Shown: piece after piece, positions 1,942 to 52,781 of the stretch
How positions within the stretch are numbered: position 1 is the stretch's first letter
Layout: the number at the start of each line of letters is the position of its first letter
IMG/VR virus record: IMGVR_UViG_3300005613_000027
Coordinates: 1 to 64,000 of that record
DNA: 64,000 bases
Origin: a virus
Direction: 5' to 3' (one strand)
Made by a program: the position numbers and the translations under genes
Notes under the pieces: model-generated
What the model saw: the letters and a program-made list of their open reading frames with translations, nothing else
What the model was told of the DNA's origin: nothing
Databases searched by the model: none

Positions 1942-3543
1942 TTATCCGTTTCTTCTAATTTTAAAATCTGTGGTAATATGATCGATATCAAAATCACCTT
2001 TTACAACATACAAGTCATTAGTAGACCTGAAACCAAAGGTTTGTGTCATATTAGCACCCATATCCAGCGTAGCACCTTCATCAGTGATCTTTAAATGTTC
2101 AACAACAATGGTTTTAAGAGCACGTTCCTGCTCTCCAGCACCCACATACACGGCTTCTGTACCATTATTCCAGTAACTTTGACCGACTAAAGTAGAATCA
2201 GAAGCAACAGTTCTAAGAGCTCCAGTTCCACCAGCTTCTTCGTCGGTTTGAGCATAAACTTTGACCACTAACTTCAGATCTTCAGATCTCATTAAATCAG
2301 CAAGATCGATATCATCCAAAGTATTATTTTCAAATGCTGTTAATTGGTCAGCAACCTTAGACCAGTTCTCAAGATCACCTGCTGTGGTATCAACCGTTAC
2401 CGTAATAGGAATCGGCAATGTCAGCGGACGATCATATGGACTAAGATGTCCTAATTCAGCAAGAGCTTCACGAGTAAGATCTGCTGTAATAGTGCAACCT
2501 GTTAGTCTCCAAGCAATGTCCCAATCGGCATCGTTAGGACCAACAATATAAACTTCTACCTGCCCCTGTCTAAGAGCACCCAGAAAATCAGGCCTGTCTG
2601 CATCTGCTAATGCTGTAAAATACGTGTCAGATGAGCCACTACCATAAGCATCAGCAGCATAAGCTACCTCAACTACATCACCAACCGCAAAACTTGATCC
2701 AGTTGGAAACCATAGTCTGTGAGGACCACCTGCAGCATCATAACCGAAGTCACTTGCAAGCGCAACACCTACTGTAGCTGATACTTCAATATTAGTAACT
2801 TCAGTAGCAGAAGTATCATACCAAGTTGCTGCTGGTGCACCATCATCATTTTTTCTCAAAAATGCTAGCTTACCAGTAGACAGTGTAGGAATAGCAACAC
2901 CAGACGCAATAGTTAGATCAACATATCCTGCTGTAATATCATCTGAATCTAGTGTATAACTGTCAAAGTTTACAAATTTTGCAGCATTCAGCAACCACAT
3001 CTTATTGTCCGTCTCAGCTCCGTAGTTCTCAGTGGCGTTAGCGCCAGTAGTATAACCAAACTCCAAACTATTGACGTAAACTTCATCTAAGAACAACGTC
3101 TGATCAATATTATTTGCCAACGTTCCTAATGAGCATTCGTCTTGAACAGGAGCCCAAATAGTAACACCCGGCAAGTTACCACACACAATAGCAAAGTCAG
3201 CTAGTGCCACACCATGCAGGTATGGGCCGACTTCAGCAAGCTGTGTACCACTAACAACAACTAAATTACCATTAGTAGAAGTAGCAGTAATATCCATGGC
3301 TTTTTTAGCAGGTGATAATTGAGCTAAAGTTGCGAGCGTGCGGACATCACCAAAATCATTGGTGTTTATTGTTACCGCCACCGCAGGAACATCGTCAACA
3401 ACATCGATAATATCTAAGTGTCCAAGTTCAAAGATGTCTTCAGACGTAAAAGTCGTAGTGCTTCCCAAGGATTGTACTCTGTAAAGTACTTCGCCATTGC
3501 ACCATACAGATTGACTCGCATAAATTATTCTATTTCTAGCCAT
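1942..3543 (-). CDS. Major tail (tube) protein
   Basis: 533 aa. MARNRIIYASQSV...RVQSLGSTTTFTSEDIFELGHL and a second copy RLTGCTITADLTREALAELGHL (tandem tube-like domains). Follows head-tail joining genes; strong RBS, own promoter and downstream hairpin. Confidence 0.65.
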   Translation of the reverse strand: MARNRIIYASQSVWCNGEVLYRVQSLGSTTTFTSEDIFELGHLDIIDVVDDVPAVAVTINTNDFGDVRTLATLAQLSPAKKAMDITATSTNGNLVVVSGTQLAEVGPYLHGVALADFAIVCGNLPGVTIWAPVQDECSLGTLANNIDQTLFLDEVYVNSLEFGYTTGANATENYGAETDNKMWLLNAAKFVNFDSYTLDSDDITAGYVDLTIASGVAIPTLSTGKLAFLRKNDDGAPAATWYDTSATEVTNIEVSATVGVALASDFGYDAAGGPHRLWFPTGSSFAVGDVVEVAYAADAYGSGSSDTYFTALADADRPDFLGALRQGQVEVYIVGPNDADWDIAWRLTGCTITADLTREALAELGHLSPYDRPLTLPIPITVTVDTTAGDLENWSKVADQLTAFENNTLDDIDLADLMRSEDLKLVVKVYAQTDEEAGGTGALRTVASDSTLVGQSYWNNGTEAVYVGAGEQERALKTIVVEHLKITDEGATLDMGANMTQTFGFRSTNDLYVVKGDFDIDHITTDFKIRRNG

Positions 3544-23555: not shown

Positions 23556-25964
23556 TTAAGTCCTTATCACATACGTAATATTGTCATCTTGGTACAGGTC
23601 CATATGAAATGTTATTCCTGATGTACTAGTTTCAGCGTAATCTCTATCCGCATTAACACCAGCAGATCCTGTGCTAGCAGCTAAAAGTTGACCATTATGG
23701 TATACATCCATATTTTGACCTTCTTTACCGCCAGCAGACACTGGTGTATAGGTGGCACTACCTGGTAATGGGTGTTCGACTCCAGCAGAAAGATCTGACG
23801 ACAAAGCTTCTAAATATTTGTCACCAGATGTGCTGGAAATAGCATCATTATTGTCTTTAATAGCTTGATCCAAAGCATCTAGAGAAGAGGTGATTGTTTC
23901 TCCATCAGTAATATAATTATCTTCTGTATAAGTCCTGTTACCAATCTTATCATTAATATTATCTAAAGCCTGCTTCAAATTATCAGTGGACTCAACCATC
24001 CAATAATTTCCAGTATTACTCCAACTTGGTCCAACAACATCATCGCCGCCGCCAGTAAAAGCCCACAGGTTAACCATATCATCTACTAATTCCGCATCAC
24101 CTTCCCAACGACTAACGAAATCTGTCCTCATCCATTCCCATTCTTCCACTTCACTTAAAAGCCTTCTGCGTGGAAAAACCATCGTAATGTTTGCAGGATC
24201 AGAGGCTGTCCATGTATAAGGAGCATCATTCACATAAAATCTTACATATACATCATAATTATCTCCGGTACCACCAAAATCAGCACCATCATAAAATTTA
24301 GCATATATAATATTAGAAGTACCTGAAGCAGTAAACTCTGCTCCAGTATCAGTATTGATTAAGTCAATAACACATACGTTATCGGTACCTCCCTCATCAT
24401 AATAACTACCATTATTAGTAGTGCTTGAAAAAATACACAACCCACGTGTATCTGTAGTATTTGCATATCCTACATTAGTATTATATAGAAAACCAGTATC
24501 AGTAGTCGAAATATCAAAACCAACACCTGAATTAGTGGCCTCTACAGCATTAATAATAGTTTTTGCATCTAAAGTATTACCTGAGAAATTATAAAGAGTA
24601 CCTTCTTTATCCGTACCAGTATCAGACGGATCAGTATATGTTTGTAAAGCATCGTACCAATTCCACGTGCCAGTCCCTCCTTTTAAATCATGTAAAATAG
24701 TTCTAATTACATTCATATCATGCTCTAAAACATCATCAGCACTAGCATCATCAGTAGAACCACTAGGTTCGGCCACTGCCTGTGTAGTAGTTCCAGAAAC
24801 AGTGTCATCATATGTTGCCGATCTCCTAATTTGTTCATATTGAGTTAACAAACTTCTTTGCAAACTAGGTGGTGTAGCATAACACGTAGTAATTTGATCA
24901 GGACTAGTGGCAAGGCTATCCACTGTCGCTTCATAAGTCGCAACACCAATACTTGTCAAATTAAGCGTAGCAGTAGCATAACCATTAGCATCAGTATTCA
25001 CCGGATTAGCACTAAAATTACCTATATTATCGCCAGCAATTCCAGAAAAAGTTACGGGAGCAGATTCTACACCCTCACCATTAGTATCAGTGACTAAAAC
25101 TTTCAACGTAATAGCGCTTCCGTTATATCCAGCTGTAATAGAGTCATTTGTAAACTCTATTTTATTTAAAGTTGCAAATCCATAGGTAGAAAATTTAGTA
25201 ACATCGAAGGTTAACTTCTTTGTGCCTTCAGTCCAAACAAAATTATCTAATCTACCTGCATCCTCAACCGAAAGTTCAGTTTTGGCAGTACCATCATATT
25301 GTGTTAAAGATGTGTATTCACCATCAACCAACATTGTAATAAACGGTTTAGCAGTTGTTGTAAAAGTTTTTTCAACTGACACAAATCCAGTATCATCATA
25401 TTCAATGAGTTTCCAAATCTGACTTCCAGATACCGCAGTTAAAGTATTACCTGTCATCTGGATACCAGTGAAATCCCTATCATGAAATCTGAGCTGCTTA
25501 ACATTTGCTTTAGCAAACGTTAAATCTATATCATTAGTAGAATCTCTTAAAGTATTAGTTTCATCATTACCGTCATTAAGGGCAACCCATGACAAAGATT
25601 CTTGTTTTGTAGGCGCTGTCCAACTAAATTTAATACCACTAGCTGTAATGACCCCAGATTCTACTTGACTAGCATCTCTAAATCTAGCATACAAATATTG
25701 AATATCACTTTCGGTAGTATCCAAATCAATACTTACAGTTCCACTAGCCGGTAATACATTCCAAGAAGCAGATCCTTCAGTAGGAAAATCAGCGTAGCCC
25801 CATAACTTATATTCCGTATAAGTAAGGTCATCGGGGGCAGATAAACCAACATTAACTGCCTCACCATGAGCATACCAATCTGCATCATCAGAGTTTTGCA
25901 CACTAATAAGGCCTGAAGCTGGCATTGACGTAGCAATGTCTAAATACATATAATTAGTAGCCAT
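23556..25964 (-). CDS. Large virion protein: Ig-like (Big-1-like) domain plus C-terminal half paralogous to 25991..27301
   Basis: VTDTNGEGVESAPVTF...TDANGYATATL; RSLLTQYEQIRRSATYDD. Confidence 0.65.
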   Translation of the reverse strand: MATNYMYLDIATSMPASGLISVQNSDDADWYAHGEAVNVGLSAPDDLTYTEYKLWGYADFPTEGSASWNVLPASGTVSIDLDTTESDIQYLYARFRDASQVESGVITASGIKFSWTAPTKQESLSWVALNDGNDETNTLRDSTNDIDLTFAKANVKQLRFHDRDFTGIQMTGNTLTAVSGSQIWKLIEYDDTGFVSVEKTFTTTAKPFITMLVDGEYTSLTQYDGTAKTELSVEDAGRLDNFVWTEGTKKLTFDVTKFSTYGFATLNKIEFTNDSITAGYNGSAITLKVLVTDTNGEGVESAPVTFSGIAGDNIGNFSANPVNTDANGYATATLNLTSIGVATYEATVDSLATSPDQITTCYATPPSLQRSLLTQYEQIRRSATYDDTVSGTTTQAVAEPSGSTDDASADDVLEHDMNVIRTILHDLKGGTGTWNWYDALQTYTDPSDTGTDKEGTLYNFSGNTLDAKTIINAVEATNSGVGFDISTTDTGFLYNTNVGYANTTDTRGLCIFSSTTNNGSYYDEGGTDNVCVIDLINTDTGAEFTASGTSNIIYAKFYDGADFGGTGDNYDVYVRFYVNDAPYTWTASDPANITMVFPRRRLLSEVEEWEWMRTDFVSRWEGDAELVDDMVNLWAFTGGGDDVVGPSWSNTGNYWMVESTDNLKQALDNINDKIGNRTYTEDNYITDGETITSSLDALDQAIKDNNDAISSTSGDKYLEALSSDLSAGVEHPLPGSATYTPVSAGGKEGQNMDVYHNGQLLAASTGSAGVNADRDYAETSTSGITFHMDLYQDDNITYVIRT

Positions 25965-43924: not shown

Positions 43925-44485
43925 TTATCTCCTATAATCTACTTCTACACAACGTTTGGATGCTATGTAGTCTGACACATACACACACAACTCTTCAGGT
44001 GTATATTTAGATAAATCTTTCTTCCATTTTCCGTAAGACCATAATCCATAATGATATCCTACCATATTTTTAATTGCCTTATAGTCCTCATCATCCAAAA
44101 GCATAGTAGCTTCCTGTACCTCTATAACCAACTGAGCACCTAAATCTGGATGATTCTTAGTAGTATGCCCTGTCTTTTTCAATCCTTGTTTCCTCAAATC
44201 ATGAATTATACAAGCGCTTAAAATTAGATCTCTGCTGGTCTCACAACCAAGCCCCCTACACAACTCATACGCCAAAGTAAACACTTTCTTAGTGTGTAAT
44301 ATAGTACCATCAGGCCCTAACTCACTAATGGGATGATATTTTCCACTAGATGATGCAGGACAATCAGTAAAGAAATAATCAGGCGCATTTATCACACATA
44401 ACTTTGTAAATTCTCTTATATCATCGTCAAATATTAACTCTAATTCTGCCGCGAAAATTGCGGCTTTTTCTTCAATAGAAACCAT
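43925..44485 (-). CDS. HD-domain phosphohydrolase
   Basis: PASSSGKYHP...GTILHT...IHD...H...HYG...SDY. Confidence 0.8.
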   Translation of the reverse strand: MVSIEEKAAIFAAELELIFDDDIREFTKLCVINAPDYFFTDCPASSSGKYHPISELGPDGTILHTKKVFTLAYELCRGLGCETSRDLILSACIIHDLRKQGLKKTGHTTKNHPDLGAQLVIEVQEATMLLDDEDYKAIKNMVGYHYGLWSYGKWKKDLSKYTPEELCVYVSDYIASKRCVEVDYRR

Positions 44486-44505
44486 TAATTCTCTCCTTTT
44501 CCATT

Positions 44506-44736
44506 CTAACGTGGTTTTAAACTTAAATCCTCTTTATATAAATTAGCCCTTTCAACTCTTATAGATTGGTGGTTTGGGTTATATCCAGCTTGTGGATATC
44601 TACCACCTCTATAACTACGTGGATATTGTTCAAAATCCATGAACTTAGACCTTTCAGATACAATTCTAGCTACAGTATATCCTTTTTGATGTCTAACCCA
44701 GTAAGGTTCTCTATAATCACTTTCAGAAAGTGGCAT
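44506..44736 (-). CDS. Hypothetical protein
   Basis: 76 aa, translationally coupled. Confidence 0.55.
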   Translation of the reverse strand: MPLSESDYREPYWVRHQKGYTVARIVSERSKFMDFEQYPRSYRGGRYPQAGYNPNHQSIRVERANLYKEDLSLKPR

Positions 44737-45089
44737 TACTCATCTCCTTCACTAATTTTTTTAAGACTTTTAAGATAGGTAATATCATACTCACCTCTTA
44801 AAAATTTTGAAACACATTTTAAATTATCAACCCATCTATTCAAATCCTCTTCTATAGCGGACGCCCTAACTCTAAATAAAATAGTGTTACTATACTCTTT
44901 TATGTCTATATTATCTAAATCTACATCCACTCTAAATTCCACACTAGATAAAATATTAATCCATTTTAAAAAAGTATCCTTTTCTTCTGTATTAACACTG
45001 AACTCAAAAACTATCTTATTTGTAGATCTTAACAAATCAAATTGTATTAGACTTTCATTAAATTCAGACTTAAACATTTTATACACCAC
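44736..45089 (-). CDS. Hypothetical protein
   Basis: 117 aa ORF. Confidence 0.55.
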   Translation of the reverse strand: MVYKMFKSEFNESLIQFDLLRSTNKIVFEFSVNTEEKDTFLKWINILSSVEFRVDVDLDNIDIKEYSNTILFRVRASAIEEDLNRWVDNLKCVSKFLRGEYDITYLKSLKKISEGDE

Positions 45090-45158
45090 CTTTTCCTTGT
45101 CTTATTTATAATTTTATCCTAAAATAAACTATTTAGGCACACATTTTTTTCTTTTTGT

Positions 45159-45473
45159 TCAATAGCGCTGGCCTGGCGGACATTTAGGAGCAGAATCTTC
45201 AGCATCTCTCGCCAAATATTCTGCATACTCCTCCTCTCTACCCTCAACAACTTTACCAGTAGTTATTTCGCTGGCTTTTATTGTTCCCATTAAATCCATA
45301 GCAAAAGAAGGAATACTGTCTCCCTCCCACTCAACAGTTATATTCATATAAGTTTTATCCGCTATCTTTGATACCATTCTAGCAGAATTATAATTATCCC
45401 CGCTTTTTGTTATACTAGTATATACGATGGTACCAATGTCTATCTTTATATCTAATGTTTTTTTACTAGCCAT
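45159..45473 (-). CDS. Hypothetical protein
   Basis: 104 aa, GGAGG RBS. Confidence 0.6.
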   Translation of the reverse strand: MASKKTLDIKIDIGTIVYTSITKSGDNYNSARMVSKIADKTYMNITVEWEGDSIPSFAMDLMGTIKASEITTGKVVEGREEEYAEYLARDAEDSAPKCPPGQRY

Positions 45474-45500
45474 TGTTATTCCTCCTTTTAATTTTATTTA

Positions 45501-45731
45501 TTAAGGTGACGGTGGCTCTGCTATAAGAGCTGCATTATAAGCATCTATATCTTCTTGAGTCATATCCCCCTGCATAAGCGGAGTACCACTAGCTGGGTCA
45601 TTAGCAGGCATAGTGTCTTCAGGACCATACCAACAAATCCAATCTCCATCAAATACAATACCAGTAGCATATCCATCGGCTGGCGCGGACTGCCCTGGTG
45701 TTAATTTGAACTTTCTATAAACATTAGCCAT
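45501..45731 (-). CDS. Small hypothetical protein
   Basis: Start revised to MANVYRK behind GGAGG. Confidence 0.55.
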   Translation of the reverse strand: MANVYRKFKLTPGQSAPADGYATGIVFDGDWICWYGPEDTMPANDPASGTPLMQGDMTQEDIDAYNAALIAEPPSP

Positions 45732-45732
45732 A

Positions 45733-46383
45733 TTATCCTCCTGAAATTTTAAAATTTGCAAGATGTTTGCCAACTAAAAATCTAGCTACATCTTTAGCAG
45801 TCTCTTTTAATTCTTTTAATGTCCATTGATTATTCACTGTAAAATCTACTCTGTGCCCATCATCTAAATCAGTTTCTGATATATGTTGTTTATTATGTGT
45901 GGCTTTATCTTCTTCTCTCTCAACTCTTACATGATAACCACCTCTATCCACAACAGCATCAACTTCATTTACATGACGTAAATCAGTAATTATAACATTT
46001 TTATATTCTTTATCTTCAATAACTCTAAATAAGCGGTCTATCCAAAAATCATAATTTATTGTTCTGAAAAACTGACCGTAATTCTGCATTATCTCACGGG
46101 GTGTCCAATACTTAGGACGGGTTGGTAACTCACCTTTACCAAGACCTTCACAAAATGGTATTATGTGGTGTACCCTTTTATATCTCTCATCCTCAACTTC
46201 TTTCTCATCGCCCCAAAGCTGTTCGTAAGATAAATCAAAATCCTTTTGAACTTTTAACTTTAATTCATGAGCATATGCCATAAGAACATATGCCTGACCT
46301 GTTTGTATTTGTAATTCTCTTGCCAACATTTCTGCAAATGTATCTTTCCCAGACCTTGCCTTACCACTTACCCCGATTAACAT
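45733..46383 (-). CDS. Deoxynucleoside monophosphate kinase
   Basis: GKARSGKDT P-loop, TPREIMQ.YG, IITDLRH.NE, HISE. Confidence 0.85.
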   Translation of the reverse strand: MLIGVSGKARSGKDTFAEMLARELQIQTGQAYVLMAYAHELKLKVQKDFDLSYEQLWGDEKEVEDERYKRVHHIIPFCEGLGKGELPTRPKYWTPREIMQNYGQFFRTINYDFWIDRLFRVIEDKEYKNVIITDLRHVNEVDAVVDRGGYHVRVEREEDKATHNKQHISETDLDDGHRVDFTVNNQWTLKELKETAKDVARFLVGKHLANFKISGG

Positions 46384-46441
46384 TTTAAACCCTCCCCCTG
46401 AACACCTTTAACAACTTTGTATACTTTATCATAAACTCCTA

Positions 46442-46702
46442 TCAAACTTTAAATTTTTTTATATTCCTTTTTAATTCAGAATCATACCTTTTTATCTTCT
46501 CGATTATATTTTTAACAGCCTTCTGCTCCCTGGTTAAAATTTCCGTTGCACGCTCTGTTGTTATATCTCTCTTTATTTCTACAAATTTAACAACATATTC
46601 TTTACACTTAGGCTCTTCTTCCTTTACACACTTCTTTCTATTCTCCTCACAAAAACACTCTACATCTAATCCATCAAATTTGACCCACAGTTTTTTAATC
46701 AA
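46442..46702 (-). CDS. Hypothetical protein
   Basis: 86 aa. Confidence 0.5.
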   Translation of the reverse strand: MIKKLWVKFDGLDVECFCEENRKKCVKEEEPKCKEYVVKFVEIKRDITTERATEILTREQKAVKNIIEKIKRYDSELKRNIKKFKV

Positions 46703-47096
46703 CGTTTATACTCCAATCGTTTATATTTATAACCCTATTAAGCAACATATATTCTTCAATTAACTTAGTTCTTTGCTCCATTAAATTAAAAATATCTAAT
46801 GTATTTCTAGGATTACTTATCAAACTTGCCATTGTTTCTATTTTCTCTAAAACTGTAGTCCTCAATTCAACAGCAGTGGAAATAGACACTTTAGTAGTAC
46901 CTATCTCTACTTCAACATCATTATTAGCTCTATTTATAGCTATAGAATACTTTTGAATTTTATCCTGTAATATAAATATCTTATTTATAATATCATTTAC
47001 ATTACCATGAACATCTTTATCTAATAAATAGTTCTCAAGCTCTTTAATTTCTGTTTTCAATATTTTATTTCTTAATATTAATTCTCCTAATAACAT
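46695..47096 (-). CDS. Hypothetical coiled-coil protein
   Basis: 133 aa, AAGGAG RBS. Confidence 0.55.
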   Translation of the reverse strand: MLLGELILRNKILKTEIKELENYLLDKDVHGNVNDIINKIFILQDKIQKYSIAINRANNDVEVEIGTTKVSISTAVELRTTVLEKIETMASLISNPRNTLDIFNLMEQRTKLIEEYMLLNRVININDWSINVD

Positions 47097-47111
47097 TTAA
47101 ATCTCCTTGTA

Positions 47112-48033
47112 AAATGTAGTTGTTCATCAAGGAACTCGGATAGAGCCCCGGCCTGCTTTTAGTCTAGTGCTGTGGAGCAATTACCACAGAATTTCAAATA
47201 TGAACGCCATCTCCTACCACAAGTAGGGCATTGAATTTTTACCCTAGTAGCTACTGCTTTTCTCACAGGTCTAACTTTACCACTCTTTTTAACAGTACCC
47301 TTCAACCTAATAATTATAGTAGAAGAACTGCTTTCCAGCGGGCCGACATCACCATAGTGAAAATCTTGTCTGACTTTGGACCCCTTCACAGTTATCACCT
47401 CGTCTGGCTTTGGGGTAGGAACATTACATGACACAGTAGTAGACGATTTCATACACCCTTTCACCTGATGGAAATTAGCCATGGTATATGTTGTTTGCGA
47501 AGGTCCGCCTTTACTATCTCCAAAAGTAAAATCATTTAAAGTATAATCAGGACTAAACCCCTCATCATAATTATAAACCACCCAAGGAGTAACTTGAGTA
47601 GTTTGCTCATACCAAAATTCTACTTCAACCATACCGTCATCAATTCTGTCTCCACGAAATCTTGCAATTTCCTTAGTCTTCTTAATAACTCTAAACTTAT
47701 GGGTAGCTCTAAGTCCTTTAAGAAAACCTTTTAATTCTCTCTGGGATTTACCAGGAACTATATACCTGTGACCGCCCATTACATCTTGTCCATCAACAGA
47801 AATTCTGGCTACCGCCGTTCGAGAATCTTTGTTTTTTAACAAAATAGAATATTCAGAACCAGGTGGTAATCTTACGACACCGCCTCGTTCTCTCATTATT
47901 CTACCTTTATGTTTTATTACTGCTATAAAATTATTCTTGTACACCATTCTATTTCCTCCCTTTTTACAGGCCTCCAGCCAAGGCCTCGTTTTATTTTTAA
48001 GCTGGATAGGATTTATGATGAACAACTACATTT
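47112..48033. repeat. 18-bp perfect inverted repeat (47112-47129 / 48016-48033) enclosing one gene
   Basis: AAATGTAGTTGTTCATCA and TGATGAACAACTACATTT. Confidence 0.9.
47159..47947 (-). CDS. Hypothetical phage protein with C-terminal zinc ribbon
   Basis: Start revised to MVYKNNF behind GGGAGG; LPPGSEYSILLKN...VDGQDV; CPTCG...CGNC. Confidence 0.7.
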   Translation of the reverse strand: MVYKNNFIAVIKHKGRIMRERGGVVRLPPGSEYSILLKNKDSRTAVARISVDGQDVMGGHRYIVPGKSQRELKGFLKGLRATHKFRVIKKTKEIARFRGDRIDDGMVEVEFWYEQTTQVTPWVVYNYDEGFSPDYTLNDFTFGDSKGGPSQTTYTMANFHQVKGCMKSSTTVSCNVPTPKPDEVITVKGSKVRQDFHYGDVGPLESSSSTIIIRLKGTVKKSGKVRPVRKAVATRVKIQCPTCGRRWRSYLKFCGNCSTALD

Positions 48034-48036
48034 AGT

Positions 48037-48255
48037 TTATTCTTCTATTAATACTTCTTTGGCTTGCATGCCTTTTTCTTCCTTTTTAAGAACAAAAGAC
48101 ACCTTCTGCCCAGCTTTTAACGTTTTAAAGCCTTCCATATCAATGCTACTGAAATGAACAAAATACTCTTCATTCTCAATATCATCTCTGGTTACAAATC
48201 CGTAACCTCTTTCATTACTAAACCATTTAACTTCTCCAAATACTCTACTCATCAT
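48037..48255 (-). CDS. Cold-shock domain protein
   Basis: GEVKWF...RGYGFV (RNP1), FVHFS (RNP2), GFKTL..GQKVSF. Confidence 0.92.
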   Translation of the reverse strand: MMSRVFGEVKWFSNERGYGFVTRDDIENEEYFVHFSSIDMEGFKTLKAGQKVSFVLKKEEKGMQAKEVLIEE

Positions 48256-48270
48256 TCTAAATTCCTCCGA

Positions 48271-48459
48271 TTATTCTTCTTTTTTCTCTTCTGTTTTATT
48301 GCCCGGCAGAAGGGGCTTCAAAGCAGCTTTAATTGCAGTTAAAATTATATCATCGTAAGGTGTAGGTGTTATGGCCACAACTTTATCGGCCACAAGTAAA
48401 ATTAGTAAAACTAATTCCCAATTTTGTATAACCCACGTCAAAACAGTAACATTATCCAT
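48271..48459 (-). CDS. Small membrane protein (holin-like)
   Basis: Hydrophobic segment plus ITPTPYDD motif, next to endolysin candidate. Confidence 0.5.
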   Translation of the reverse strand: MDNVTVLTWVIQNWELVLLILLVADKVVAITPTPYDDIILTAIKAALKPLLPGNKTEEKKEE

Positions 48460-48468
48460 GTTTCCTCC

Positions 48469-48957
48469 TTAAACGTCGTATAAACTCTTTAGGTAATTTA
48501 AAGACACCTCTTCATAACTATGTTTCTCATCCTTTAATTTTAACTTCTTAATATTCCCGCCTTCTCTGTAAGCCACGTGAATCCATCCATCTGGAAAATA
48601 TTCTGCAATGACTGCGCGATATTCCAGCCCACTACAAATAAATTCCACGACATCAATTAATTTAGTTTTCGGATCTATCGGCTCTATATCAGCAGCCTGC
48701 CCTCTTGCGTGATTCGAATTCTTATTGCTACCCACCGCTTCACACAATTCCACACTCCTAAAACCACTTGTAATCCTAATTCTGCCAAACTCATTTCTTA
48801 CAGGCTGTAATATATTTACAGCCAGCTTTTCTATACATTCCCACTCTTCATCAGTAGGTTCGTTTTTTATACCTTTCCTCAAAGCAGTCTGAGATCTTAC
48901 AAACTCCTTATAACTAAAGCTTTCTGCGCCAGGTATTTTATCATTTAATTTTCTCAT
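48469..48957 (-). CDS. Peptidase M15A (Zn D-Ala-D-Ala peptidase), endolysin candidate
   Basis: ITSGFRS...SNHARGQAADI...WIHV. Confidence 0.85.
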   Translation of the reverse strand: MRKLNDKIPGAESFSYKEFVRSQTALRKGIKNEPTDEEWECIEKLAVNILQPVRNEFGRIRITSGFRSVELCEAVGSNKNSNHARGQAADIEPIDPKTKLIDVVEFICSGLEYRAVIAEYFPDGWIHVAYREGGNIKKLKLKDEKHSYEEVSLNYLKSLYDV

Positions 48958-48967
48958 TAATTATCTC

Positions 48968-49966
48968 CTATAGCTGTGACGCTAAAAGACATCCGTGCGC
49001 AACAGCGGTCATTGGATCTTCCGCTTCTCTCACTTCACTTATTTCTAATGGAAAATTCACAGTTTTTAAACTTTCTTTTATTTTCCTAGTAAACCCTTTA
49101 GCCCTAGCTAAACCACCTGAAACAATTATTGGCACTGGGTCTCTGAAAATAGGTAGCTCCTTTTCTCTTCTACCAAGTTCATACACAATATTTTGTAAAG
49201 TGTAAGTAATAACTGAATTGTAATACACAGCAACAGCTTCCATAATCTGATTACTCGGTTTGAATAAATCTACACCTGCTTCTTTTTCTAACTGCACCAA
49301 ACTAGGAGAAACATCCAATGCCTCACCTACAGATTGGTCTATGAAATCTCCTGCTTTAGTCATACTAAATTCAATTAAAGGATCTCCTTGGTGGATTACA
49401 GCCACATTACACATCCCAGCTCCATAAGAAAGACATATACCAGTAAGCCCGTCTTCAAGTAGCTCGGACAATGCTATGGCAAAACCCTCATTGATTGGTG
49501 ACGCCACATACCCCATTTCATTTAAATACATGTTCATAATTTCTGTGTGGTACACAATATTAAAAACTGCATCTATCGGTTTAGCAGGCACTGAATAAAT
49601 AACCACATCACCCTTATTACCATTACCTAGTAAACTTTTTATAATTAGTTTAAGCATAGGTAATGAGGCTTTCTCTTTGGGTGATATAATGCCTTTTTTT
49701 AATGGACGCCTTGCTACATCATTTCTTTCTATAGCAATCTCAAGGGCATCTTCACCCACCACTGTAAAAGCGCCATCAGAATTGGTTATGAAATTACAAC
49801 CTCGTTTTTCTAATGACAATCTAATACTATTTTTGTTTACTTCTGATTTAGGCACTATCGTATAGAAAGCATCCCTTTCCATTTTGAAAACCACTTTATC
49901 GTCGGCATCAAGCATTCCTGCTACCAACATATTTGTACCTATATCTAAACCTTTACTTCCAGACAT
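48968..49966 (-). CDS. Actin-like ATPase (MreB/MamK/volactin-like)
   Basis: Phosphate-1 GLDIGT, connect NEGFA, phosphate-2 YGAGMCN, KE, adenosine VSGG, AVAHG. Confidence 0.8.
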   Translation of the reverse strand: MSGSKGLDIGTNMLVAGMLDADDKVVFKMERDAFYTIVPKSEVNKNSIRLSLEKRGCNFITNSDGAFTVVGEDALEIAIERNDVARRPLKKGIISPKEKASLPMLKLIIKSLLGNGNKGDVVIYSVPAKPIDAVFNIVYHTEIMNMYLNEMGYVASPINEGFAIALSELLEDGLTGICLSYGAGMCNVAVIHQGDPLIEFSMTKAGDFIDQSVGEALDVSPSLVQLEKEAGVDLFKPSNQIMEAVAVYYNSVITYTLQNIVYELGRREKELPIFRDPVPIIVSGGLARAKGFTRKIKESLKTVNFPLEISEVREAEDPMTAVAHGCLLASQL

Positions 49967-49984
49967 AATTCTTCCTCCTTTTTC

Positions 49985-51337
49985 TTATCCATTCGCCTTA
50001 GGAAGTTTACCCATCAAACTTCTTAATCTCTCTACCTTACTCTGTACTTCGACCTCTGACTCTGATTTTTCTTCCTTTATATTTATATGCGATTCTAAAC
50101 CTTCACCAGCATCCTTCTTCAAAGGATCAATAAACGTAGTTTCCATCTTAGGCCTATTAGTTTCCAGTTCAAGTTGAGCTTCTGCGTTCGAAAGAGCGAA
50201 CGTTAAATCTTCAATCTTTCTAGTCTGTTTCTTCAATAAAGCAGTAACATCCTCATCAGTTTTGAATTTAACTTTCTCTTTTAATGTTCTGATCTCACCT
50301 TTTTTCTTTTCTATCTCAAGCTTAAATTTATTTATCTCTTTATTGTGCCGCGCGTTAATTTTATCCTTTTCTGATGCCATCATTGCTAATTCAGCTTTCA
50401 GCTTCTTTGGTTCTTCTGATTTAGAACTGCTTTCCAATTTCTCATATTTTTGCTTTAATTCATTTAATTCGGAAGTTATTTTAGACAACTCTTTTTCTGC
50501 TACATTCCTTTTTTCTCTTGATTCATCCAACTTTTTTTGTAAAACATCGGCTTTATCTTCTAACTCCTTATAATCGAAACTACCTACTTTTGAAGCCATT
50601 TTTGTTAATTCAGTTTGTAATTTAACCTGTTGTTTCTTAGAATCATCTAATTTTTTCTGTAATTCTTTGGACCCTTTTATCTTGGCGCCACGTTTAAATT
50701 CTGTAAACTTATTTACCAACTCAACTCTATTATGCTCGGTATCTGATAATTGTTGTTCAAGCGTCGCCTTTTCAGATTTAATATTATTTAGCTGTGCTTC
50801 TAATTCAGTTTTTTCAGATTCCAAAATTCCTATTTGATCTTGAGCCTCATTTTTTCTAACTCTCATGTTCTTTACTTCATTGACTAATCTGTCTTCATTA
50901 GCTTGTAAAGAACTTACTCTATCTTTAAATTCTAATTTTTTAGATTTAGCCTCTTCTAATTCTTTTTGAAGACCTACTTGATATATCTCTAAATTTTTTA
51001 TTTGCTCTAAAAGATCACTTTCATTCTTTTTCAAAGCATCTGTAGCAACACGTAATTCTTTAATCTCCTGTTTATTACCTTCCTGTACTTCTTTTACAGC
51101 AGAAGCTACGGCCCGTCTAATTTCGTCATCGACTTGCTCACCAGTATACTCTGCCTCAGACACTTTCTTAAGAGCTAATTCTTCGGTTAACCGTCTAACT
51201 TCCTCCCTTAAATACACAACTAACTCTGATGTTTGAGTTGCCATTGTTTTCTGGCGTCTCTGTAAATCCCTTGGCCCGCCGCTAAGTAATTTTCTACCGT
51301 CAGGCTTTTGAAATTCTTTATCATATTTCATTACCAC
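49985..51337 (-). CDS. Long coiled-coil protein
   Basis: About 350 aa of heptad-rich E/K/L sequence. Confidence 0.7.
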   Translation of the reverse strand: MVMKYDKEFQKPDGRKLLSGGPRDLQRRQKTMATQTSELVVYLREEVRRLTEELALKKVSEAEYTGEQVDDEIRRAVASAVKEVQEGNKQEIKELRVATDALKKNESDLLEQIKNLEIYQVGLQKELEEAKSKKLEFKDRVSSLQANEDRLVNEVKNMRVRKNEAQDQIGILESEKTELEAQLNNIKSEKATLEQQLSDTEHNRVELVNKFTEFKRGAKIKGSKELQKKLDDSKKQQVKLQTELTKMASKVGSFDYKELEDKADVLQKKLDESREKRNVAEKELSKITSELNELKQKYEKLESSSKSEEPKKLKAELAMMASEKDKINARHNKEINKFKLEIEKKKGEIRTLKEKVKFKTDEDVTALLKKQTRKIEDLTFALSNAEAQLELETNRPKMETTFIDPLKKDAGEGLESHINIKEEKSESEVEVQSKVERLRSLMGKLPKANG

Positions 51338-51983: not shown

Positions 51984-52781
51984 TTAAGCGTTGGCTGTTC
52001 CAGTCATACTGCTACGAGCAACCGTTACATCACCAAAGTCAGTTGCGTTACCTGGAGTTGAAATCGTAATATAATCTATAACATTAGTAGCACCACTAGA
52101 TCCACTACCGCCGCCAAATGTTCCTCTATCATTGGTGCCATTAGAAGCTGGGCCGCCAGTATGCCTTATTCCAGTTAAATCACCAAAGTCAGTCGCATCT
52201 CCTAAAGATGATATTGTGATGTAATCCATAACATCAATTTTAACAGTTGTGTTGCCTCCTGCAAATACACCTCTATTATTTGTCGTATTTGATGTTGCCA
52301 TTAAATAATCACGCGCTACTGTCATATCACCAAAATCATTCGCATCTCCAGTAGATGATATGGTTATGTAGTCTATAACATTCGTACCAGCATTACCCTT
52401 ACCGTGCCACACAGCTCTATCATTAGCGCCGTTTGATGTTGCAGCTGGATATGATTTAGTTGTTGTTAAATCTCCAAAATCAGTAGCATCCCCAGTAGAT
52501 GATATGGTTATGTAGTCTATAACATTACTTGTGCCTGTGCCACCAGCAAACACACCTCTGTCTCCAGGAGGTACAACATAAGAAATAGGTGACACACTAC
52601 CAAATCCTAATACTTCTCCAACACTATCTCTTGCAATAACTGTCTTGGTGCCTGATTCCAAACTATCAACCTCATATACGCCAACAGATTCTTCCGTATT
52701 GGATTCTACAGTCCAATCACTTTCTTTAATTATAATAACTCGTGAAGCATTTTCTAAAGTTCCTGAAATTTTATATGGCAT
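51984..52781 (-). CDS. MPYKISG-family protein with DYITISSTGDATDFGD repeats
   Basis: Shared ~70-aa N-domain plus four ~45-aa propeller-like repeats. Confidence 0.7.
   Translation of the reverse strand: MPYKISGTLENASRVIIIKESDWTVESNTEESVGVYEVDSLESGTKTVIARDSVGEVLGFGSVSPISYVVPPGDRGVFAGGTGTSNVIDYITISSTGDATDFGDLTTTKSYPAATSNGANDRAVWHGKGNAGTNVIDYITISSTGDANDFGDMTVARDYLMATSNTTNNRGVFAGGNTTVKIDVMDYITISSLGDATDFGDLTGIRHTGGPASNGTNDRGTFGGGSGSSGATNVIDYITISTPGNATDFGDVTVARSSMTGTANA

Follow-up and report, generated by a model that had tools for sequence, protein, structure and literature searches.

Gene X of a jumbo phage lies between the two arms of an 18-bp perfect inverted repeat (P1), 886 nt apart. The locus raises the question of whether the 5′ and 3′ untranslated regions (UTRs) of one message fold together around the coding sequence or whether the arms act in DNA. 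The window, i.e., the whole stretch of 64,000 nt that was analyzed, belongs to IMG/VR record IMGVR_UViG_3300005613_000027, an 87-kb jumbo-phage fragment corresponding to about 32% of the genome. An initial annotation of the window proposed a four-way RNA junction of helices P1–P4 that holds X in a loop, and listed a split non-coding RNA (ncRNA) or ribozyme, an excised or circularized mRNA unit, an autoregulatory element, and a mobile cassette as possible interpretations.

Gene X and its family

From the N- to the C-terminus, X comprises an Ig-like β-sandwich, a disordered linker, and a small β domain, and its C-terminal part carries a basic stretch followed by a CxxC...CxxC zinc ribbon. X had been described as a zinc-ribbon gene; the ORF stands as described, and the zinc ribbon is represented by weak, sub-threshold DUF7575/DZR matches alone. 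The structure model is a generic Ig-like sandwich with PDB matches of Z below 7, and an OB-fold chain is absent among the structure matches listed. X has no match to a single-stranded DNA-binding protein (SSB) family in Pfam and PHROGs, no transposase, integrase, or resolvase domain in domain searches, and no resemblance to an enzyme or transporter in family searches. A tail tube was considered because X of phage XacN1 follows the sheath gene, and was rejected; the matches listed are generic Ig-like sandwiches, without a tail-tube, Hcp, or gp19 chain.

Clustering at a 90% identity level divides the protein family into more than 500 clusters, with roughly 275 viral and 500 metagenomic relatives, and its genes usually adjoin the tail sheath gene of jumbo myophages. 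A blastn search of the isolate phage collection returned no close DNA relatives, and a protein-level search of the isolates returned distant X homologs only, in XacN1, Xoo-sp13, RAS14, CM1, and one uncultured phage. The cold-shock gene that had been noted directly upstream of X is confirmed by its domain match (Table 1) and is a syntenic neighbor of X in 21 loci, and the ORF downstream of X has no family match at the curated cut-off.

Table 1. Features of the X locus, in the order of the transcribed strand (coordinates of the window).
Feature	Coordinates	Strand	Remark
Cold-shock-domain gene, 72 aa, upstream of X	48037..48255	(-)	PF00313, 2.4e-22
P1 5′ arm, mRNA AAAUGUAGUUGUUCAUCA	48016..48033	(-)	begins 3 nt past stop codon of cold-shock gene
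Spacer UAAAUCCUA, P1 to pseudoknot	48007..48015	(-)	9 nt
S1 5′ strand (S1a) UCCAGCU (P2 5′ strand of initial annotation)	48000..48006	(-)	A2 columns 19-25; 7/7 pairs covary
A-rich loop L1 UAAAAAUAAAACG	47987..47999	(-)	13 nt, joins S1a to S2a
S2 5′ strand (S2a) AGGCC	47982..47986	(-)	A2 columns 47-51; independently confirmed on A4
S1 3′ strand (S1b) GGCUGGA (P2 3′ strand of initial annotation)	47973..47979	(-)	within S2 hairpin loop
S2 3′ strand (S2b) GGCCU (earlier assigned to P3)	47968..47972	(-)	abuts S1b directly
Shine-Dalgarno (SD) sequence GGGAGG of X	47955..47960	(-)	7 nt after pseudoknot, 7 nt before AUG
ORF X	47159..47947	(-)	262 aa
29-nt 3′-UTR segment	47130..47158	(-)	proposed P3 3′ strand (47150-47156) and P4 hairpin (47131-47149)
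P1 3′ arm UGAUGAACAACUACAUUU	47112..47129	(-)	SD of next gene about 4 nt further on
133-aa ORF downstream of X	46695..47096	(-)	syntenic neighbor in 17 loci

The leader of X and the proposed four-way junction

The leader of X is predicted to form a pseudoknot of two helices, S1 (7 bp) and S2 (5 bp). The hairpin loop of S2 is 9 nt long, and seven of these nine nucleotides pair with the upstream S1a strand, whereas S1a and S2a are connected by an A-rich stretch of 13 nt in the window and about 11–23 nt in relatives. The elements GACUUUAAA, UUAGUC, and AGG/CCU are near-invariant, and so is (AC)UUUAAA at the S1/L1 border in relatives. Among 70 distinct leaders, 97.1% of pseudoknot cells are paired, compared with 74% in shuffles and 26–41% in slid controls. 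Double changes occur in all 12 pairs of the pseudoknot, amounting to 201 double-change cells vs. 39.8 in shuffles, and none of 500 shuffles reaches 201. In an independent set, S2 is 99.4% paired and five of five pairs covary. Helix P2 of the initial annotation is accordingly retained as S1 of a covarying pseudoknot.

The covariance model of the leader was built with S1 only and does not encode S2. It has a single match in the 87-kb record (56.9 bits) and matches directly upstream of the ATG in 87 of 87 loci, most of which were used in building the model, and likewise in all 43 loci outside the model-building set for which upstream sequence is available. The model furthermore matches upstream of homologs of 27–30% identity in XacN1 (E 6e-4) and RAS14 (E 1.6e-3), and the leader of Xoo-sp13 gives a weak pseudoknot match. 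The comparison demonstrates a predicted, gene-specific leader pseudoknot that ends 7 nt before the Shine-Dalgarno sequence and is kept over 27–97% protein identity, with a single gene per genome. It is argued from the geometry that S1 and S2 coexist in one pseudoknot; they could also represent alternative states. A cmscan of positions 44000–51000 against Rfam 15, at E up to 1, returned just one chance miRNA match elsewhere in the stretch, in line with the earlier statement that no known family is recognizable, and the leader pseudoknot is regarded as a new structured-RNA family absent from Rfam.

The initial annotation had paired the leader with the 3′ UTR through P3 and had placed the hairpin P4 beside it. 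Complementarity is present in both helices, and P2, P3, and P4 abut; when the two UTRs of the window are joined, their nested MFE fold is the four-way junction, at −53 kcal/mol. This fold favors a compact P1–P4 junction that acts as a split ncRNA, ribozyme, or circularized unit. However, neither helix exceeds chance: a 7-bp run of the P3 kind occurs in 21% of shuffles of the 29-nt segment, and a stability equal to that of P4 in 10%. The segment itself is missing from relatives L087–L090 (71–77% protein identity), where 7–8 nt are found instead. P3 moreover competes with S2, which is 98–99% paired with full covariation, and GGCCU pairs locally with AGGCC in the 70 distinct aligned leaders and in the independent set. 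No Rfam ribozyme family was matched, and nothing points to a split ncRNA, a ribozyme, or a circular RNA. The abutment in the window fold stands, whereas P3 and P4 are window-specific; as a family feature, the four-way junction is already contradicted by the sequences of the relatives, and its reading as a functional unit is extremely unlikely. The motif CUAUCC, common to both halves of the proposed structure, is a single 6-mer.

A long-range helix around the coding sequence

The inverted repeat was found as described, and stems with unrelated arm sequences occupy the same position in relatives; for example, a 48% identical X homolog with other neighboring genes is flanked by an 18-nt repeat of unrelated sequence. 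The arm sequences differ completely from locus to locus, although their position is fixed: in 31 loci, a median of 64 nt (60–71) separates the end of the 5′ arm from the ATG, and a median of 9 nt (6–16) lies between the stop codon and the 3′ arm. In 71 non-redundant loci compared with a permutation null, 31 exceed the 95th percentile and 24 the 99th, and with tighter positional windows these numbers are 37 and 27; when loci are pooled, 42 of 103 non-redundant loci exceed the permutation 95th percentile. P1 is not a chance pairing according to permutation, shuffle, and slide controls. The stem spans a median of 17 nt (range of 11–39 nt) and, taken over all relatives, 10–39 nt, vs. 18 bp in the window; many stems are just 11–15 bp long, and some relatives have an imperfect duplex of up to 25–28 nt. 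The spacer between P1 and the pseudoknot is 3–13 nt long in most P1-bearing relatives. Compensatory change is illustrated by two loci, L091 with the G·U intermediate UUCGCCA/UGGUGAA and L092 with the compensated form, and the arms are identical at 18 of 18 positions between the window and L087/L089, whereas the coding sequences are only 74–78% identical. The comparison of loci establishes P1 as a predicted long-range helix in which the start of the 5′ UTR pairs with the sequence just past the stop codon, and the proposed pairing of the two UTRs around the whole ORF is upheld, with covariation across homologs.

Because the null is cleared in only about 40–50% of loci, P1 is dispensable or replaceable. 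Loci without P1 often carry a local hairpin between a promoter-like motif and the pseudoknot, and many carry a strong terminator-like hairpin after the stop codon. Among the isolate homologs, those whose flanks were inspected show local terminator hairpins and lack a long-range repeat.

The level at which the arms act can be judged from the wobble pairs. G·U exceeds A·C by 29:4 in the pseudoknot and, as a modest bias, by 20:8 in P1 (p = 0.036), and of the two strands, the sense one gives the more stable duplex in 46 loci and the antisense one in 25 (p = 0.007). Since G·U outnumbers A·C, the pairing is considered to act in sense RNA, on the transcribed strand as originally claimed. A role in DNA is very unlikely, whether the arms are taken as terminal inverted repeats that bound a mobile cassette of one gene or as the crossover sites of an invertible segment of the Gin/Cin/Hin type. 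Such a cassette would account for the differing places of the unit, for instance in L010, where it follows the orf86 homolog instead of separating the cold-shock gene from cc133 and the cold-shock/cc133 junction is clean, and for the differing immediate neighbors (52 distinct contexts among 71 loci). Two broad syntenies are nevertheless kept: in one, X lies between the cold-shock gene and cc133, and the other, with the order X–virion protein–tail sheath, is found in 43 of the 71 loci. Furthermore, there is no target-site duplication, the outer bases (ACU... and ...UAC) do not form a direct repeat, the arms lack conserved termini across loci, and the arm sequence occurs just twice in the 87-kb record. 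Domain searches of X and of this record, about 32% of the genome, found no transposase or recombinase, and the record gave no match to resolvase or integrase genes. The wobble bias favors sense RNA. A cassette is likewise disfavored by the position of a conserved promoter-like motif beyond the 5′ arm in many clades and of a terminator beyond the 3′ arm in several, and as an interpretation it is not sustained.

In most clades, the promoter-like motif ends 1–13 nt upstream of the 5′ arm (median of 7 nt before its first paired base), and in several clades a terminator hairpin lies just downstream of the 3′ arm. Judging from this motif, the arms would be situated at the transcript ends. In the window, the promoter motif TATATAGTTAGAACA is not enriched (5 matches vs. 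7.1 expected), and it is sparse in three other contigs; owing to this lack of enrichment, it is regarded as a motif of other clades that cannot be used to place the transcription start in the window. No promoter or terminator was recognized at P1 in the window's clade.

Possible roles of the pseudoknot and P1

The leader pseudoknot and P1 probably constitute an RNA-level cis-acting architecture of one phage mRNA, from which we infer a regulatory mechanism. The pseudoknot would serve as a platform for recognition through which translation initiation is set. It would most likely be a protein-binding operator, perhaps bound by X, the basic zinc-ribbon product of the gene, in the manner of T4 gene 32; a 30S/S1 enhancer is the alternative. 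The T4 gene 32 operator consists of a 5′ pseudoknot, UUAAA elements, and the ribosome-binding site, and the pseudoknot nucleates autogenous repression (PMC535899). The X leader resembles that of T4/RB69 gene 32 in having a gene-specific pseudoknot that precedes the SD sequence of a single phage mRNA, a conserved UUUAAA element, and a zinc-binding motif in the product. It differs in the long A-rich connector between S1a and S2a, with S1b and S2b 0–1 nt apart, and in its distance from the SD sequence, which is about 7 nt here and about 40 nt in gene 32. The proteins would differ as well: gp32 is a single-stranded DNA-binding OB fold, whereas X is modeled as an Ig-like sandwich, ends in a zinc ribbon, and has no SSB match among the families searched and the folds listed. 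We know of no ORF-enclosing stem in gene 32. If the zinc-ribbon protein binds its leader, X would provide a second phage case of gene 32 logic with an unrelated fold. The pseudoknot family combines very strong covariation with a tie to one uncharacterized protein family, and its occurrence in the cultured phages XacN1 and RAS14, and weakly in Xoo-sp13, makes it directly testable.

A compact pseudoknot beside the SD sequence, with its near-invariant elements and A-rich loop kept over so wide a range of protein identity, would also be expected of a small-molecule riboswitch or of a structural enhancer or standby site for 30S or S1 that lacks protein-specific feedback. This explanation is unlikely: no Rfam riboswitch matched at E up to 1, the downstream gene is no recognizable enzyme or transporter, and the restriction to one gene per genome is typical of autogenous operators.

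As part of the preferred cis-acting architecture, P1 may keep the 5′ end of the message double-stranded and protect it from 5′-end-dependent decay, and may tie this protection to a completed 3′ end. The terminating ribosome should open P1, because the 3′ arm begins a median of 9 nt after the stop codon, and would thereby couple the helix to translation. An end-sequestering role fits the observation that loci without P1 often carry a local 5′ hairpin, and many a strong terminator-like hairpin. Base pairing at the 5′ terminus reportedly shields mRNA from RNase E (Bouvet and Belasco 1992 and Emory et al. 1992, both among the references of PMC3997798). The local hairpins at the same spot in loci without P1 are similar to the 5′ stem-loop stabilizers of ompA and papA, whereas in the window and about 40% of relatives the partner strand belongs to the 3′ UTR, at a distance of about 0.9 kb. 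Such natural replacements of P1 by local hairpins offer a ready comparative experiment on communication between the 5′ and 3′ ends of prokaryotic messages. A further proposal, considered distinctly unlikely, is that P1 is a conserved prokaryotic closed-loop device, in which the stop codon is brought beside the pseudoknot and SD sequence and ribosomes that terminate can return to the start site they came from. The helix would be melted by a ribosome at the stop codon and would re-form only once translation ceases, giving an open translated state and a closed protected or processed state. In the window's clade, such a P1 would also set the stop codon of the upstream gene beside the SD sequence of the downstream gene and couple both.

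To our knowledge, very few bacterial or phage mRNAs have a conserved, covarying helix that encloses a whole ORF, and the known cases, icaR and hok, each concern one system. In the X family, by contrast, the same pairing over a long range is achieved by dozens of independent sequences. In the icaR mRNA of Staphylococcus aureus, the ORF is looped out by 5′–3′ UTR pairing, with effects on translation and decay; the 3′ UTR pairs with the SD sequence, blocking it and making an RNase III site (PMC3868564). P1 is similar in being a UTR-to-UTR pairing of a single mRNA with the ORF looped out. It differs in that 55 nt separate its 5′ arm from the SD sequence further downstream, which is left free, and in that the pairing covaries over dozens of loci. 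SD pairing of the icaR type was not found at X, where the conserved 5′ arm lies upstream of the pseudoknot and only the non-conserved P3 approaches the SD sequence. In hok mRNA, the two transcript ends pair with each other (tac/fbi), the 5′ strand being at the very terminus, which locks a conformation of complete transcripts alone (PMC9841398). The UTR-to-UTR pairing of X would resemble this end-to-end arrangement if its arms lie at the transcript ends, as the promoter-like motif suggests. By contrast, hok is a small toxin mRNA under the control of antisense Sok RNA and 3′ trimming, whereas there is no small toxin ORF here, the X ORF being about 790 nt long.

The long-range duplexes that flank a whole functional RNA within a polycistronic transcript, i.e., the processing stems of 16S and 23S rRNA and the RNase III sites of T7, provide another comparison, although P1 encloses an mRNA ORF, many of its stems are below typical substrate length, and cleavage is hypothetical. 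P1 as an RNase III processing stem, which excises a monocistronic X mRNA and leaves paired, exonuclease-resistant ends, is possible, if unlikely. The helix has 18 perfect bp in the window and reaches the longer imperfect duplexes of some relatives, and icaR offers a precedent for an RNase III site made by 5′–3′ UTR pairing (PMC3868564). P1 of the window's clade is wedged between the stop codon of the upstream gene (3 nt) and the SD sequence of the next gene (about 4 nt), with no recognized promoter or terminator. Because the 5′ arm follows the cold-shock gene so closely and no promoter is recognized, it may be internal to a polycistronic RNA in the window, which would favor processing. Stems of 11–15 bp, as in many loci, are nevertheless short for bacterial RNase III, a site of which requires about two helical turns of double-stranded RNA. 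Excision would moreover be unneeded in clades with the promoter-like motif upstream and a terminator hairpin downstream, and no RNase III gene was matched in the 87-kb fragment of about 32% of the genome, although the host enzyme could act. Processing of P1 by RNase III would be compatible with the pseudoknot as an operator.

Genomic setting and the long-range stem P1

The window is made up of the first 64 kb of an 87-kb IMG/VR virus record. This record is ~32% complete (CheckV) and therefore represents a jumbo phage fragment, in which the genes surrounding ORF X, the 262-aa ORF enclosed by the inverted repeat, are all located on the minus strand in the order endolysin, 62-aa ORF, cold-shock-domain gene, X, 133-aa ORF, 86-aa ORF, and dNMP kinase. 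The initial annotation located both the 18-bp perfect inverted repeat and the cold-shock gene correctly. The two repeat arms, separated by 886 nt and forming the putative stem P1, are the only copies in the whole record when up to two mismatches are allowed; the 5′ arm begins 3 nt past the cold-shock gene stop codon, and the Shine–Dalgarno (SD) sequence of the next gene begins ~4 nt past the 3′ arm. The window also contains a 17-nt perfect inverted repeat (TAACCATATCATCTACT), for which two partner copies lie ~28 kb away.

Features of the window and segments of protein X
Feature	Position	Strand	Remarks
Cold-shock-domain gene	48037-48255	-	adjoins X upstream
P1, 5′ arm	48016-48033		
S1, leader helix	48006-48000 / 47979-47973		UCCAGCU/GGCUGGA
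S2, leader helix	47982-47986 / 47968-47972		AGGCC/GGCCU
ORF X	47159-47947	-	262 aa
P1, 3′ arm	47112-47129		
17-nt inverted repeat	24071-24087		
Its partner copies	52350-52366; 52494-52510		
X, N-terminal β-sandwich	residues 1-118		AlphaFold
X, disordered variable linker			AlphaFold; between β-sandwich and small β unit
X, small β unit	residues 181-218		AlphaFold
X, basic stretch, then CxxC...CxxC zinc ribbon			AlphaFold; C-terminal to β unit

The first homolog fetched (48% identity, other neighbours) also has a flanking 18-nt repeat, whose arms match at 16/18 positions and are unrelated in sequence to those of the window. Homologous loci were collected in sets of 80 viral, 8 metagenome, and 80 further viral sequences, and removal of near-duplicates left 71 and then 103 loci. 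For P1, the far 5′ UTR was compared with the 48 nt that follow the stop codon, the best ungapped complement giving the score, and the null consisted of 5′ and 3′ flanks paired from different loci. The score exceeded the 95th percentile of the null in 31 of 71 loci and the 99th in 24; with windows anchored on the leader pseudoknot described below, 37 and 27 of 71 exceeded these thresholds, and in the pooled set 42/103 and 26/103, whereas direct and reversed same-locus controls behaved like the null. In the 31 significant loci, median distances are 64 nt (60-71) from the end of the 5′ arm to the ATG and 9 nt (6-16) from the stop codon to the start of the 3′ arm; a gap of 3-13 nt separates the 5′ arm from helix S1 in most P1-bearing loci. 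Arm sequences diverge widely between loci, and stepwise change is visible in the syntenic clade of the window, from UUCAUCA/UGAUGAA (window) through UUCGCCA/UGGUGAA with G·U (L091) to UUCGCCA/UGGCGAA (L092). This recurrence above the null, at fixed positions and with pairing retained through step-by-step divergence, indicates that P1 is a selected, covarying helix; the proposed pairing of the 5′ and 3′ UTRs around the ORF is thus borne out in homologs, and the observation is real. Furthermore, both arms are identical (18/18) between the window and two homologous loci (L087 and L089) whose coding sequences are 74-78% and leaders 63-66% identical to it, and the pseudoknot between these arms is altered by compensatory substitutions.

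The leader pseudoknot

Alignment of the 68 nt before the ATG in 71 loci was clean and contained two interleaved helices, S1 (7 bp) and S2 (5 bp), of which S1 corresponds to P2 in the initial annotation and is here one half of a covarying pseudoknot. The order is S1a, an A-rich loop (~11-23 nt), S2a, 2 nt, S1b, 0-1 nt, S2b, 5-8 nt, and SD. Alignment cells were paired in 97.1% of cases, vs 74% in shuffles and 26-41% with the partners slid; all 12 pairs had changed on both sides, and double-change cells numbered 201 vs 39.8 in shuffles, a count reached by 0/500 shuffles. A covariance model encoding S1 and not S2 had one match in the 87-kb record (56.9 bits) and matched directly upstream of the ATG in 87/87 loci searched, most of which were model-building loci, as well as in 43/43 loci with upstream sequence outside the building set. 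In the alignment of these independent loci, S2 was 99.4% paired, with double changes in 5/5 pairs. Among cultured jumbo phages, the model matched just upstream of the 27-30% identical homologs of XacN1 at E 6e-4 and of RAS14 at E 1.6e-3; the Xoo-sp13 match was weak (E 0.37). Matches extending from relatives of the window to distant cultured phages indicate that the association of pseudoknot and gene is old and specific. Nothing resembling the pseudoknot was found in Rfam 15, in agreement with the initial annotation, which had recognised no known family, and in disfavour of the ribozyme it had considered. Regarding geometry, S1b and S2b are contiguous and could stack into a single continuous strand. 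The 2-nt linker would run across the deep groove of S1, in the manner of kissing-loop complexes, with both helices bridged by the long A-rich loop; S1 and S2 should therefore be able to coexist.

The four-way junction proposed initially fares differently. The complementarities of P2, P3, and P4 are all present, and the nested minimum-free-energy fold of the joined UTRs is exactly this junction (-53 kcal/mol). However, the P3 3′ strand lies together with the P4 hairpin in a 29-nt segment between stop codon and 3′ arm, where relatives of 71-77% identity with the same arms have only 7-8 nt; a 7-bp P3-like run is reached by 21% of segment shuffles and the P4 stability by 10%, and P3 formation would displace S2. 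Thus, the junction is at most a peculiarity of the allele in the window.

RNA element or mobile cassette

A repeat acting at the DNA level is expected to be symmetric for G·U vs A·C mismatches and for strand stability. Among non-Watson–Crick cells, G·U-type outnumbered A·C-type by 29 to 4 in the pseudoknot and by 20 to 8 in significant P1 stems (p = 0.036), and the sense duplex was more stable than the antisense in 46 loci vs the reverse in 25 (p = 0.007), which upholds the earlier argument that G·U pairs favour RNA over a DNA inversion site. The arms had also been considered the ends of a mobile cassette. In L010 (2007-3759), the X unit, bounded by its arms, has moved as one block to a position two genes further downstream within the same gene block, and the cold-shock gene and 133-aa ORF adjoin there across a clean 8-nt junction without arm remnant; the unit is therefore able to relocate as a block, as is common for phage genes. 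By contrast, no target duplication was seen beside the arms, no transposase or recombinase domain was found in X or the 87-kb record (~32% of the genome), and no further arm copy occurs there. An AGAACA core lies upstream of the leader in 57/103 loci, in many of them as part of a longer motif, ATATATATAG-N-AGAACA; in 22/24 loci having both motif and P1, the motif stops 1-13 nt short of the 5′ arm on its upstream side. A terminator hairpin lies just downstream of the 3′ arm in several loci. The arms therefore lie within the transcription unit, and a cassette is not supported.

The motif in its full form, ATATATATAG-N-AGAACA(A/U)A(U/C), is located ~75-100 nt before the X ATG (L021, L024, L035, L042, L049, L063, L080, and others), its end at a median of 7 nt before the 5′ arm, and some loci (L081, L056, L035) have a further copy between the X unit and the gene that comes next. 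The motif, probably the late promoter of the clade that carries it, is not enriched in the window. Two gene arrangements predominate: that of the window's clade (cold-shock gene, X, 133-aa ORF, 86-aa ORF, dNMP kinase; X near endolysin) and X followed by a virion structural protein (phrog_19418) and tail sheath in 43/71 loci (e.g., L036:4011-6774). In XacN1 (L084) and Xoo-sp13 (L086), X comes immediately after the sheath gene; most phages have X and tail sheath as neighbours in one of these ways.

Proposed mechanism and protein X

X is thus specifically accompanied by two conserved sense-strand RNA elements, each at a conserved distance from SD or stop codon, which comparative sequence evidence supports well as a new cis-regulatory RNA architecture; we infer its mechanism as follows. 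The pseudoknot would serve as a recognition platform controlling initiation, most likely as a protein operator, with an S1/30S enhancer or a riboswitch as alternatives. The closest working analogue of such an operator is T4 gene 32, with its 5′ pseudoknot, UUAAA elements, and RBS (PMC535899). P1 would sequester the 5′ end and tie it to the completed 3′ end; since its 3′ arm is ~9 nt past the stop codon, it should be opened by ribosomes that terminate. Pairing of 5′ and 3′ regions is known in bacteria from icaR (PMC3868564) and hok (PMC9841398), although neither shares the anatomy of the X unit. Because the unit lies within an operon in the clade of the window and no promoter was recognised there, RNase III-type excision has to be taken seriously as an alternative to this role of P1. 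Where P1 is not significant, the promoter-like motif and the pseudoknot are often separated by a local hairpin, and a strong hairpin past the stop codon is present in many of these loci. Local hairpins in place of P1 point to a conserved function in keeping the 5′ end of the message paired, locally or with the 3′ UTR; such pairing is a classic protection from RNase E-dependent decay, according to references in PMC3997798. The distant XacN1 homolog lies between two local terminator-like hairpins (L084:2378-2405 and 3323-3345) with similar stems (GAAAAGGGAGCC and AAAGGGGAGCU) and has no long-range stem.

The X family is large, with unnamed proteins in 503 clusters (E < 1e-3); the contigs that encode them reach 325 kb. 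In the AlphaFold model (mean pLDDT 71.5), the basic tail and zinc ribbon would be compatible with nucleic-acid binding. Among the matches listed for PDB structures, all were generic Ig-like ones (Z < 7); significant matches in BFVD were uncharacterised proteins of giant viruses, nudiviruses, baculoviruses, and iridoviruses, and the family may be common to jumbo phages and large eukaryotic DNA viruses. These matches (E 7e-13 to 1e-3, TM 0.3-0.54) include proteins of Marseillevirus, Yasminevirus, Pithovirus, and nudiviruses, ISKNV ORF098, baculovirus P22.2, WSSV wsv390, and ranavirus ICP-18.
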